Shown here piece by piece: positions 13,208 through 19,988 of a stretch of 64,000 nt of DNA. This DNA comes from an uncultured Coriobacteriia bacterium (GTDB lineage Bacteria > Actinomycetota > Coriobacteriia > Anaerosomatales > PALSA-660), in contig CAVSCJ010000005.1 of assembly GCA_963726435.1 (NCBI GenBank), forward strand, positions 81,452 through 145,451, given 5' to 3'. A program made the position numbers and the translations under genes. The notes beneath the pieces are model-generated. The model was not told the DNA's origin and made no database searches. It worked only from the letters and a program-made list of their open reading frames with translations. Position 1 is the first letter of the stretch. Each line of letters begins with the position of its first letter.

Positions 13208-13934
13208 CTACGTCTCGCCGAGGTAGGTCTTGCGCACCTGCTCGTTGACGAGCAGCTCCTTGCCCGGCCCTTCGAGCGCCACCTTCCCGGTCTCGAGCAC
13301 GTAGCCGCGGTCGGCGATCTGCAGGGCCATCGCCGCGTTCTGCTCGACGAGCAGGATCGTGATGCCCTTGTCGTTCAGCTTCTTCGAGTGTCTCGAAGAT
13401 GATCTCGACGACGACCGGGGCGAGCCCCATCGACGGCTCGTCGAGCATGAGCAGCTTCGGATCGGCCATGAGTCCCCGTGCCGTCGCGAGCATCTGCTGC
13501 TCGCCGCCCGAGAGGGTGCCGCCCTTCTGCAGGCGCCGCTCCTTCAGGCGCGGGAAGAGCTCGTAGGCCCACGCCATGGACTCCTTGACGCCCGCGACGT
13601 CCTTCGTGCGCAGGAACGCGCCCATCTCGAGGTTCTCCTCGACCGATCATGCGCGGGAAGATGTGCCGGCCCTCGGGGACCTGGATGATGCCCTTTGCCG
13701 TCACCTGGTGCACCGGCATGCCGGAGATGGTCTCCCCCATGAACTTGATCGAGCCCGTGCGCGGGCTGCAGCAGACCGGAGATCGGTCCGGAGCGTCGTG
13801 GACTTGCCGGCGCCGTTCGCGCCGATGAGCGTGACGATCTCGCCCTTGTCGACGTGCAGGCTGATGCCCTTGAGGGCCTCGATCTGGCCGTAGAAGGTGT
13901 GGATGTCGTCGACCTTGAGTACGTTCTCAGCCAT
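13208..13934 (-). pseudogene. livF: Branched-chain amino-acid ABC transporter ATP-binding protein LivF, with at least 4 frame breaks.
   Basis: The protein can only be read by hopping frames: [23 protein letters not shown]...[13 protein letters not shown] / ISGLLQP / [18 protein letters not shown]... / ENLEMGAF...LSGGEQQMLATARGLMADPKLLMLDEPSMGLAP...ETLE / KLNDKGITILLVEQNA...VRKTYLGET-stop. Confidence 0.85.
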
Positions 13935-14731
13935 CGGTGCCGCCCTGCGCCTGAGCCATCATCGCTTCGGCGCCCTTGCCCAGGTACGCCTCGATGACCT
14001 TCGGGTCGCGCTGGATCTCCGCGGGCTTGCCCTCGGCGATGAGCTCGCCGAAGTCCAGAACGTAGATCCGGTCGGCGATGTCCATGACGACCTTCATGTC
14101 GTGCTCGATCAGCAGGACGGTGACCCCGGTGTCGCGGATCCGACCGATGAGCTTCGTGAGCGACTTCGTCTCCTGCGGGTTCATGCCGGCCGCGGGCTCG
14201 TCGAGCAGGATGAGCTTGGGTTCGGTCGCCAGCGCCCGCGCGATCTCGAGACGGCGCTGGTCTGCCGTAGGGCAGGTTCTTCGCGAGCTCGTTGGCCTTG
14301 TCGGCCAGGCCGACGAAGCGCAGCCGGACTTGAGCGCCTCGTCGACCGTGTGCTGCTCCTCGCGCTTGAACGCCGGCGTGCGCAGCACCGCGCCGAGCGG
14401 GCCGGCCTTCGAACGGCTGTGCCGGCCGACCATGACGTTCTCGAGCGTGGTCATGTTCGCGAAGAGCCGGATGTTCTGGAAGGTGCGGGCGATGCCCATC
14501 TTGCAGACCTCGTGCGGCTTGCGCCCGCCGAGCTCCGTGCCGTCGAAGAGCACGGAGCCCTCGGTCGCCCTGTAGATGCCGGTCATGAGGTTGAAGAACG
14601 TCGTCTTGCCGGCGCCGTTCGGTCCGATGAGCGCGACGATCTCGCCCTCGTCGATGTGCAGGTCGACGTTCGCAGACGGCCCTGAGGCCCCCGAACATCA
14701 TGGTCACGTTCTCAGCTTGGATGACGGACAA
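13927..14731 (-). pseudogene. livG: Branched-chain amino-acid ABC transporter ATP-binding protein LivG, with 3 frame breaks (about 14665, 14335, 14270).
   Basis: Segments are SVIQAENVTMMFGGLRAV / NVDLHIDEGEIVALIGPNGAGKTTFFNLMTGIY...EALK / RLRFVGLADKANELAKNLPYG / DQRRLEIARALATEPKLILLDEPAAGMNPQE...LLIEHDMKVV. Likely TTG start at 14731 after CGGAG. Confidence 0.85.
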
Positions 14732-14767
14732 GGTCGCTACTCCGATCACACGTCGTCGGGGGTGATG

Positions 14768-15953
14768 TCACGGTTGCTCGGTATCCCACAACTGCATGTC
14801 CTCTTCGGCGAGGACGCGCTCGTCCTCGGGGTGCAGTTCCAGCGCTCGACGTTTGCTCGGGATCATGCCCTGTGGTCGTACGGCCATCATGACGACCATG
14901 AGCAGGCCGAACACGAGGAACCGGTAGCCGGTGATCGCCGAGGTCGCGTCGCCCGGAGAGCTTGATGACGCCGGCGACCATGAGGCCCTGGATGAGGTCG
15001 GGAACGCCGCGGATCAGCAGCGCGCCGACGATGACGCCCGGGATCGAGCCCATGCCGCCGAGCACGACGATGCACACGACGAAGACCGACTCCATGAACG
15101 TGAACGACTCGGGCGAGATGAACTGCTGCACGTAGGCGAACGTCACGCCCGCGATACCGCCCGACATCGCACCGAGCGAGAACGCCCACAGCTTCTGCGT
15201 CCTGATGTTGACGCCGCAGGCCGCGGCCGCCACCTCGTTCTCGCGCATGGCGACCCATGCGCGACCGAGCCGCGAGTCGTCCAGCCGCCGGATGATGATG
15301 ATGGCGCCGATGATGAGCAGCAGCACGACGAAGTACCAGAAGAGGTTCGTCCCGAACGACGAACTGCGCCGATCGGCGTCGGGAAGCGGACGTTGTCCGC
15401 AGCCACGTCGCGCCGGCCACGGCGGGACCATCATCTCGCTGCCGCGAGGCAGGCCCGTCGCGCCGTTGGAGAGGCCGAGGAAGTCGTTGTTGAGCAGATG
15501 CGCACGATCTCGCCGAAGCCGAGCGTGACGATCGCGAGGTAGTCGCCCCGCAGCCTCAGGACCGGGAAGCCGAGCGCGAGACCCGTCATCGCGCCCGCCG
15601 AGCGCCGCCGGGGATGAGCATCAGCGCAGTAGGTCGCGCCGCCGAGTGCTGCCCGAGACGGCCTGGCCGATGAGAACGCCCGCGTAGCCGCCCATCGCGT
15701 AGAACGCGATGTAGCCCAGGTCGAGCAGGCCGGCGTAGCCGACGACGATGTTGAGCCCGAGCGCGAGCAGCACCCAGATGCCGACGATGACGAGGATGCG
15801 GACGAGGAACCCGAGCCCGGACGCGGCCTGGAGCACGACCGGCACGATGATCAGCGCCAGCGCGATGACCGCCTAGAGCGCGATCTTCTTCGGCGGCGAT
15901 CTGGCCGCCTTGCTGGCTGACGCTTGCCGTTCGATGCCTGTCGCGTCGGTCAT
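14768..15953 (-). pseudogene. livM: Branched-chain amino-acid ABC permease LivM, with an in-frame TAG at 15873-15875 and at least 4 frame breaks.
   Basis: ATG 15953 ...[23 protein letters not shown]...[24 protein letters not shown]. Later segments [31 protein letters not shown] / [15 protein letters not shown] / ...AWVAMRENEVAAAACGVN...VVLGGMGSIPG... / DATSAITGYRFLVFGLLMVV...DTEQP-stop lie in other frames. Confidence 0.8.
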
Positions 15954-15956
15954 CGG

Positions 15957-18323: not shown

Positions 18324-18409
18324 CCCTTTCCTCCGACTTGACGTCCTGTTGTGACGGGCGGGTGCCTGATGCTTCTGCCCTGGGTACACCCGTCCTCAGG
18401 ATTCAGAGA

Positions 18410-18426
18410 GTGTATCAGAGTGATAC
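18410..18426. promoter_or_regulatory. Perfect palindrome TGTATCA-N3-TGATACA in the livK upstream region. It is a candidate operator and overlaps a -10-like GATACACT.
   Basis: Read directly from the sequence. It is the only AT-rich patch in the 288-nt spacer between the Rrf2 stop (18612) and the livK start (18323). Confidence 0.4.
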
Positions 18427-18611
18427 AAGGCGCAACAGTATCGGAAAGGCGCCGGACGCAGCGGCTCGACCCGCGTTTCGTGCGTGTTCCGGCCTCCTGC
18501 GACAGCCTGCGCGGCCGTGCGGCAGCGTGAGCTGATCGGCGAGCAAGAACGGCGCCCGGATGAATACGGAAGGCGGTCCGGCGCTCGCCCGCGAACGCCT
18601 CGGGCGCAGCC

Positions 18612-19028
18612 TCAGATGAAGTACATGGCTGCCGCGCTGACGTCGAGCTCGCGTTGTCTGGCGGCGAGGTCGGCCAGCGTGGTTCCCTCGAGGGCGAGTT
18701 CGAGAGCGGCGGAAGCCGAGGCCCACATCTCCGACACGGCGGAACCGGTCACCTGAGGCACGTCTAGGACGATCCGCTGCACCGCCCTGACGATCTCGGC
18801 CACCGTGATCTCGCCGGCGGGGCGCAGCAGCGCGCAGCCGCCTCCGGCGCCACGGCGGCACTCGACGATGCCGCGCTCGGCCAGCGCGGTGAACTGCTGC
18901 TCCACGAAGCGGCGCGGCAGACCGAGATCGTCGGCGATCTCGCCGGCGGCCACGTAGGCCCCCGGTTCCTGCAGGGCGAGCGCGGTCAGCCCTCGCAGCG
19001 AGTAGTCGAGGCGCTGGGAGACCCTCAC
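18612..19028 (-). CDS. Rrf2-family transcriptional regulator (CymR/IscR-like), intact.
   Basis: 138 aa: [72 protein letters not shown] 19028 overlaps the cysK stop as GTGA. Confidence 0.85.
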
Positions 19029-19988
19029 TCCCCGTATCCCTCCCACAGCGGCGTCGACAGGTAGCGCTCTCCGGTCGACGGCGCGACGGTGACGACGACC
19101 TTGCCCGCGGCCTCGGGGCGGGCGGCGAGCCGCAGCGCCGCGGCGACGTTGGCCCCGGACGAGATGCCGACGAAGATGCCCTCCTCGGCCGCGAGCCGGC
19201 GGGCCATCGCGATGGCGGTCGGGGCCGTCGACGTGCTCGACCGCGTCGAGGACGTCGAGGTCGAGCGTCGCGGGGATGAAGTTCGCGCCGATGCCCTGGA
19301 TGAGGTGCGGACCGGGAGTCAGCTGCTGCCCGGCGAGCCGCTGCGAGATGATCGGCGACTCGGCCGGCTCGACGGCGATCGCGAGCGTCCCCGGGCGTGC
19401 GCTCCTTGAGGAATCGTCCCGCCGCCGCTGATGGTGCCGCCCGTGCCGACACCGGCGACGAACGCGTAGAGCTCCTCGTCGCCGAGGGCGGCGTCGATCT
19501 CCGGCCCGGTGGTCTCGTAGTGGGCCGCGCGGGTTGGCGGGGTTGTCGAACTGGCCCGGGATGAACGATCCGTCGATGCCGCGGCGATCTCCGCGGCCTT
19601 GTCGACCGCGCCCTTCATGCCGAGGGCCCGGTCGGTCAGCACGAGCTCGGCGCCGTACGCCGCGAACAGCTTGCGGCGCTCGATCGGAGAACGACTCGGG
19701 CATCGTCAGCAGGACCCGGTAGCCGCGGGCGGCGCCGACCAGCGCCAGCGCGACGCCGGTGTTCCCGCTCGTCGGCTCGACGATCACCGACCGGCCGGGC
19801 TCGATGAGGCCGCGGGCCTCGGCGTCGTCGATCATGGCGCGGCCGATGCGGTCCTTGACCGAGCCGCCGGGGTTGCGGGACTCGAGCTTGACGTAGACGC
19901 GGCCCGGCAGCCCGTCGCCGAGCCGGTCGAGCCGGACGAGCGGCGTGGAGCCGATGGTGTCGACCACGCCGGGGATCATTGCTGGCAT
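19025..19988 (-). pseudogene. cysK: Cysteine synthase A (O-acetylserine sulfhydrylase), with at least 6 frame breaks.
   Basis: ATG 19988 follows GGAGG. Segments are IGSTPLVRL...KLESRNPGGSVKDRIG...EPTSGNTGVALA...TMPESFS / IERRKLFAAYGAELVLTD...KGAVDKAAEI / GSFIPGQFDNPANP / AHYETTGPEI...VAGVGTGGTISGGG / RFLKER / LAIAVEPAESPI...[12 protein letters not shown] / [28 protein letters not shown]...YLSTPLW-stop. Confidence 0.85.

Follow-up and report, generated by a model that had tools for sequence, protein, structure and literature searches.

The branched-chain amino acid uptake operon livKHMGF and the neighboring cysK gene of an uncultured Coriobacteriia bacterium are interrupted in the public record by 40 frame-shifting indels (insertions or deletions), and these frame breaks are very probably an artefact of consensus building rather than mutations of the organism. 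The genes are encoded by the minus strand from 13.2 to 20.0 kb of a 64,000-nucleotide (nt) stretch of contig CAVSCJ010000005.1 (assembly GCA_963726435.1, positions 81,452 to 145,451 of the forward strand), hereafter referred to as the window, where livF, livG, livM, livH, and livK are followed by the gene of an Rrf2-family regulator and by cysK. The spectrum of the lesions and the identity of the inserted bases point to a specific mechanism, probable on balance, by which both alleles of sites that differ between mixed strains were written in tandem. As far as can be read from the sequence, beneath these breaks lies an ordinary cysK-Rrf2-livKHMGF cluster, common to related Coriobacteriia-like genomes, and the source organism most likely has this cluster intact, like its relatives.

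An intact reference locus was obtained using the longest LivG fragment of the window as a query, which retrieved an intact LivG of 266 amino acids (aa), P0002. The JGI metagenome contig of P0002, designated L005, carries an intact livKHMGF operon with tilS, hpt, and ftsH next in line; identity to the window is 97% for FtsH, 96% for Hpt, and about 88% for the DNA. L005 and L006 share the liv operon with the window; in L012 and L013 (ENA and Logan assemblies), the whole cysK-Rrf2-livKHMGF cluster is arranged as in the window, and every gene is intact in all four. A closer cysK than that of L012/L013 was supplied by L014. The named relatives are metagenome-assembled genomes (MAGs) labeled Coriobacteriia; the closest ones found have only about 88% DNA identity to the window, and all are intact.

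Using the five Liv proteins of L005 and L012 in tblastn, all five genes were covered in the window in the order K-H-M-G-F. By tblastn and the Pfam domains of the orthologues, the components of a LIV-I operon were recovered, comprising a binding protein, two BPD_transp_2 permeases, and two ABC ATPases. The window thus shares gene order, domains, and sequence with intact Coriobacteriia-like loci in which LIV-I livKHMGF lies next to cysK and an Rrf2 gene, and the consensus lesions are the sole difference. Two differences in layout concern the surroundings of the operon. A gene for a ClC chloride channel with CBS domains (11380-13146, minus strand) sits between livF and tilS in the window and is without counterpart in L005 (11516-11712), while L005 carries panD and a second, divergent liv operon (429-6041) between Rrf2 and livK, which are found neither in the window nor in L012.

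None of the six liv and cysK genes was readable in a single frame by tblastn or by open reading frame (ORF) listing, the latter displaying them only as fragments in differing frames. Frame hopping was likewise seen in a homology-free plot of the G+C content of third codon positions by frame (GC3) and in a codon-usage frame scan: between about 13.1 and 19.7 kb the coding phase switches every 150-900 nt, whereas elsewhere in the window it is stable over whole genes. Frame-shifting indels were counted by alignment with the intact relatives. In livF (13208-13934), these are +2 at 13783 (alternatively, +1 each at 13783 and 13769), +1 at 13647, and +1 at 13386, and the LivF proteins of L005 and L012 split into several frames in tblastn. 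In livG (13927-14731), they are +1 at 14673, +2 at 14330, and +1 at 14263. The livM gene (14746-15953) has 13, in addition to one 3-nt insertion and a TGG to TAG nonsense change at 15875-15873, affecting a Trp conserved in L005 and L012; no other lesion of the patch is of the substitution type. Tblastn and alignment gave five for livH (15957-16958), together with two 3-nt insertions, and 10 for livK (17122-18317). DNA alignments of cysK (19025-19988) to relatives revealed five +1 events, at 19685/7, 19527/30, 19417, 19401/5, and 19224, and one -1 event at 19577/83. With three each in livF and livG and six in cysK, the total is 40, of which 34 fall in livKHMGF. When the window, L005, L006, and L012 were aligned together, 41 window-specific indels were counted in 13206-18239, consisting of 36 insertions and five deletions.

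The first-pass annotation of this DNA, made from the letters alone, had described the liv genes and cysK as unreadable in one frame, with both +1 and -1 shifts and an in-frame TAG in livM, all of which was borne out; its estimate of about 30 breaks was an undercount. Also as described there, no breaks were found in the Rrf2 gene, ftsH, the ClC gene, the peptide ABC operon, or pat. The Rrf2 gene (18612-19028, minus strand) was recovered as a single tblastn segment (residues 1-138, 80% identity to L012 Rrf2). At the lesion density of the patch, a gene of 417 nt would escape with a probability of 0.09, so its intactness needs no special explanation. The comparison with orthologous loci of close relatives that the annotation had proposed is the one given above, with intact relatives and window-specific indels.

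The breaks belong to the deposited record, because the translation of the 219-aa broken LivG fragment is itself present, verbatim and 100% identical, in a public protein collection as P0001, from a single NCBI/ENA contig of 187,194 bp. Their creation on extraction of the window was thereby ruled out.

The indel spectrum is strongly one-sided, with 48 insertions against seven deletions (p = 1e-8). Nearly all indels measure 1-2 nt and no large deletions occur. Only six of the 30 one-base insertions touch an identical base, compared with 39-46% under random placement; in the liv alignment, four of the 23 insertions are homopolymer-adjacent, compared with 46% in simulated random insertions (p = 0.005). 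Several breaks had been placed in short homopolymers in the first-pass annotation, which had also raised the question whether every break falls in one; the insertions instead avoid homopolymers, touching identical bases less often than random ones. Given this avoidance, slippage is not the cause, and homopolymer slippage was rejected (17-20% of insertions homopolymer-adjacent against 39-46% by chance). The lesions were also tested for a deletion-biased spectrum with homopolymer slippage, which was not found.

The inserted bases are related to sites at which the relatives differ. Eighteen insertions in liv coding DNA lie outside homopolymers, and in nine of them the extra base equals that of L005 or L012 at the adjacent site, compared with 14% in simulations (p = 3e-4). 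The null model consisted of sixteen simulations of 36 random insertions each, fully re-aligned, and no replicate exceeded four matches; adjacent-allele matches are thus about 3.5 times commoner than in simulated insertions. When the extra base was put in place of its neighbor, a synonymous codon or a residue found in a relative resulted in 13 of the 18, against 49% expected. Examples (inserted base in brackets) are TCC[G] at 19685 (TCC in L014, TCG in L012); G[T]CG at 15359 (Ala GCG in L005, Val GTC in L012); [A]TCG at 13647 (Ser and Thr in the relatives); ACC[G] at 14779; and CGC[G] at 10503 in tilS. The insertions look like the two alleles of a polymorphic site written one after the other.

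The lengths of neighboring indels often add up to multiples of three (13783-13647, 14330-14263, 15651-15497, and 16689-16626), and between such pairs stretches of 20-45 codons leave the frame and then return to it, as would fit clusters of adjacent variant sites. Regain of frame, for example, at 14330 (+2) with 14263 (+1) or at 13783/13769/13647, could also be taken as a sign that the genes are functional despite their breaks, through programmed ribosomal frameshifting, transcriptional slippage, or RNA editing. Such recoding is scarcely credible here: up to 13 shifts would be needed per gene, their contexts are heterogeneous and share no slippery motif or homopolymer, the shifts are absent from every relative, and essential motifs such as the LivG Walker A are out of frame relative to the start codon. 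To our knowledge, no bacterial recoding system operates at such a density of shifts. Recoding and compensated frameshifts were rejected on the missing common context and the out-of-frame catalytic motifs.

For an assessment of selection, the genes were repaired by removing the indels, after which proteins and DNA were compared with those of L005 (Liv) or L014 (CysK). All repaired Liv proteins reach full length, and their identity to L005 is 85-97%, with LivF at 94% (ratio of nonsynonymous to synonymous substitution rates, dN/dS, 0.13), LivG at 96.6% (0.08), LivM at 91% (0.15), LivH at 90.5%, and LivK at 85% (0.33). Repaired CysK has no stop and is 93.7% identical to that of L014; the stitched protein is 93% identical to P0127 over its full length. 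The dN/dS range of the repaired liv genes (0.08-0.33) lies inside that of nine flanking genes (0.05-0.36), and the DNA of patch and flank is 88.9% and 87.7% identical to L005, respectively, when gaps are ignored. In a relative-rate test with L012 as outgroup, 66 amino-acid changes were specific to the window and 51 to L005 (p = 0.2), and private changes at third codon positions are fewer in the window than in L005. One nonsense substitution was found in total. Relaxed selection in the patch, sought as raised dN/dS or an excess of lineage-specific substitutions, was thus not detected.

These results bear on a second reading, that of genuine and very recent pseudogenization, in which branched-chain amino acid uptake and CysK would have been lost through dozens of small indels, as in reductive evolution. 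The lesions are present in the deposited sequence, one nonsense substitution looks true, and several other genes of the window are broken too, as in decaying genomes. Similarly, pseudogene clusters of Mycobacterium leprae, Sodalis, and Shigella are known for transport and biosynthesis genes with multiple frameshifts and for other broken genes scattered around. However, in true pseudogenes the indels are deletion-biased, nonsense mutations occur, dN/dS is raised, and large deletions or insertion sequence (IS) elements are often present, and these hallmarks, one nonsense codon aside, are not seen in the window. Bacterial decay was reportedly found to be deletion-biased by Mira, Ochman, and Moran in 2001; here, insertions outnumber deletions and large deletions are missing. 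Neutral decay brings many substitutions per indel, so that 40 neutral frameshifts should be accompanied by hundreds of extra substitutions, and neither these nor a rise in dN/dS accompanies them. Moreover, the lesions shun homopolymers, which are the sites of real slippage, the inserted bases mimic alternative alleles, tilS is also broken, and strong purifying selection acts on all these genes in the relatives. Pseudogenization is therefore considered distinctly improbable. The first-pass annotation had offered, unranked, a local consensus failure (including strain mixture) and recent decay; the former is favored by the indel spectrum and the tandem alleles, while the latter is contradicted by the 48:7 insertion bias, the lack of extra substitutions, the flank-like dN/dS, and the likeness of inserted bases to neighboring alternative alleles.

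The lesions are concentrated in a hot patch at 13386-20686, where about 48 indels were found relative to the intact L005, L006, L012, L013, and L014. The density of frame-shifting lesions is 5.8 per kb in this patch and 0.11 per kb elsewhere, an approximately 54-fold difference (p about 1e-33). The zone had been called sharply bounded, which did not hold, as lesions of the same type occur at 20367, 20686, 10503, ~410, ~657, ~1275, ~34455, and ~51015. At the far end of the patch, a conserved ORF of 89 aa (20176-20443, plus strand) has +1 at 20367, where the L012 protein changes frame at residue 64/65 in tblastn, and a ferredoxin-thioredoxin-reductase/Rieske fusion gene (20454-21118, minus strand) has -1 at 20686, with a tblastn split at residue 144/145 and its FeThRed_B and Rieske domains in different frames. 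Both were confirmed by DNA alignment.

Outside the patch, the same type of error affects unrelated genes, including indispensable ones. In tilS (9927-11316, minus strand), which is essential in most bacteria, +1 at 10503 (CGC[G]CCG) was located by DNA alignment and by the frame change of L005 TilS at residue 271/272 in tblastn. The nadA and nadB genes (1-2148, minus strand) carry +1 lesions near 1275, 657, and 410: a FAD_binding_2 profile extends over three frames of nadB (~657, ~410), and nadA loses its C-terminus, which is out of frame (~1275), as also seen in a three-frame read-out. A DUF1611 gene (33833-34830, minus strand) has +1 near 34455, with DUF1611_N and DUF1611_C in different frames and a matching three-frame read-out, and a GNAT acetyltransferase gene (50835-51309, plus strand) has +1 near 51015, its N-terminal half lying in one frame and the C-terminal half with Acetyltransf_1 in the next. 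By frame arithmetic, the lesions of nadA/nadB (two in nadB), DUF1611, and GNAT are all +1. The remaining genes checked in the window are whole.

The confinement of most lesions to one tract could also be accounted for if some 7 kb had been bridged or filled by one or a few noisy long reads, or by gap-filling, and left unpolished, the noise being unrelated to strains. The tract of 7.3 kb is about the length of one long read, nearly all of its lesions are small indels, substitutions being in no clear excess, the scattered lesions elsewhere would suit a generally indel-prone assembly, and indels are the dominant error of long reads (PMC8445201, PMC12007338). On the other hand, about 46% of random noise is expected beside an identical base, and 17% was observed; platform noise is usually enriched in homopolymers; and the 3.5-fold excess of adjacent-allele matches is left unexplained. 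A plain noisy-read patch stays a reasonable rival, which we regard as possible though doubtful.

The reading of the breaks as a consensus artefact is preferred because of the insertion bias, the lack of a decay signal, the tandem alleles, the hits in housekeeping genes, the intact relatives, and published precedent. From the deposited consensus, we infer a mixture of strains and a faulty assembly step as follows. The contig would have been assembled from reads of two or more co-occurring strains that differ at many sites in the approximately 7-kb tract. At these variant sites, the consensus step would misalign and emit both alleles consecutively, resulting in a +1 insertion, or occasionally drop a base instead, resulting in a deletion. 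Stretches in which the strains are nearly identical would keep isolated single-nucleotide polymorphisms and only scattered errors, such as those in tilS, nadA/B, DUF1611, and GNAT. The hot patch would then represent the greatest divergence between the co-assembled strains and may be a recombined tract.

Gene-fragmenting indel errors in long-read assemblies were reportedly described by Watson and Warr in 2019. In a collapsed assembly of Trypanosoma brucei, nearby allelic variants led to wrong read alignments, indel errors, and apparent frameshifts, as revealed by allele-specific re-assembly (PMC8445201), and gene-fragmenting indels are the dominant long-read assembly error addressed by the Kastor tool (PMC12007338). 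As in these long-read and collapsed-haplotype assemblies, small indels in the window split conserved genes into several frames, their deletion restores the proteins, unrelated housekeeping genes are affected, and errors cluster where allelic variants lie close. In contrast to the textbook nanopore pattern, the spectrum of the window is insertion-biased and homopolymer-avoiding, and unlike in the collapsed-haplotype cases, the link to polymorphic sites is drawn here from relatives rather than reads.

Several points weigh against the tandem-allele explanation. The adjacent-allele test comprises 18-20 events, with relatives that are 12-19% diverged standing in for a second strain, and about half of the insertions are without an alternative allele in the two relatives. 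Neither the nonsense change in livM nor the seven deletions are explained by tandem alleles. Furthermore, flanking-gene searches and exact look-ups did not find a second assembly of the same species that might directly show an unbroken genome. Exact-sequence look-ups of the window Rrf2, LivG fragment, Hpt, and FtsH gave no independent assembly on record, and a collection of 5.8 billion proteins held no LivG or CysK closer than those of L005 and L014, save the window's own fragment. In a search for the orthologous patch by way of the ClC neighbor among species-representative genomes and JGI metagenomes, relatives were 75-84% identical and none had liv genes beside ClC; the ClC gene itself, the left neighbor of the patch, is unbroken in the window, with a 588-aa ORF that aligns end-to-end with these relatives.

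The association with polymorphic sites would also fit lesions that are real, if a tract of about 7 kb had been recombined from a diverged strain and heteroduplex mismatches had been resolved as tandem-allele +1 events, inactivating liv and cysK at once. We give this a very slim chance; if true, recombination between diverged alleles would have an insertion-biased mutational outcome that is so far undescribed. More likely than this, the lesions are artefactual but coincide with a tract in which the strains of the population really are highly polymorphic or have recombined.

Taken at face value, the record would suggest a false loss of branched-chain amino acid uptake, cysteine synthesis, nicotinamide adenine dinucleotide (NAD) synthesis, and even tilS, and metabolic reconstructions would inherit the error; gene loss should not be read from it. 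The diagnostic needs no reads and could be reused on other MAGs, where a mixed-strain artefact would be flagged jointly by four features, that is, insertion-biased indels, homopolymer avoidance, inserted bases identical to the other allele at the neighboring site, and unchanged dN/dS. Such an artefact also marks, indirectly, tracts where co-existing strains differ.

Some minor observations were made on the borders of the patch and on lesions outside it. Window G+C is about 69% throughout, without a compositional break at the frame-break zone. A search for repeats, IS ends, and composition shifts at the patch borders gave flat composition and only one weak border-spanning inverted repeat, at 13144-13168 and 20448-20472 (25 nt, 76% complementary, core GGGCGCCGGAYCT). 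It brackets the hot patch almost exactly but was judged to be a chance match, hundreds of which are expected in 14 kb at this G+C. In tilS, the extra G at 10503 equals a would-be synonymous third-position alternative (CGC/CGG). The three +1 breaks of nadA/nadB fall within about 900 nt and form a second small cluster at the window edge, which may be the edge of another error-rich patch continuing beyond the window start. Finally, at 47877-49550 on the minus strand, DUF2064 and family-2 glycosyltransferase domains share one open frame, which could be a natural fusion, two genes whose separating stop was lost, or another consensus error.

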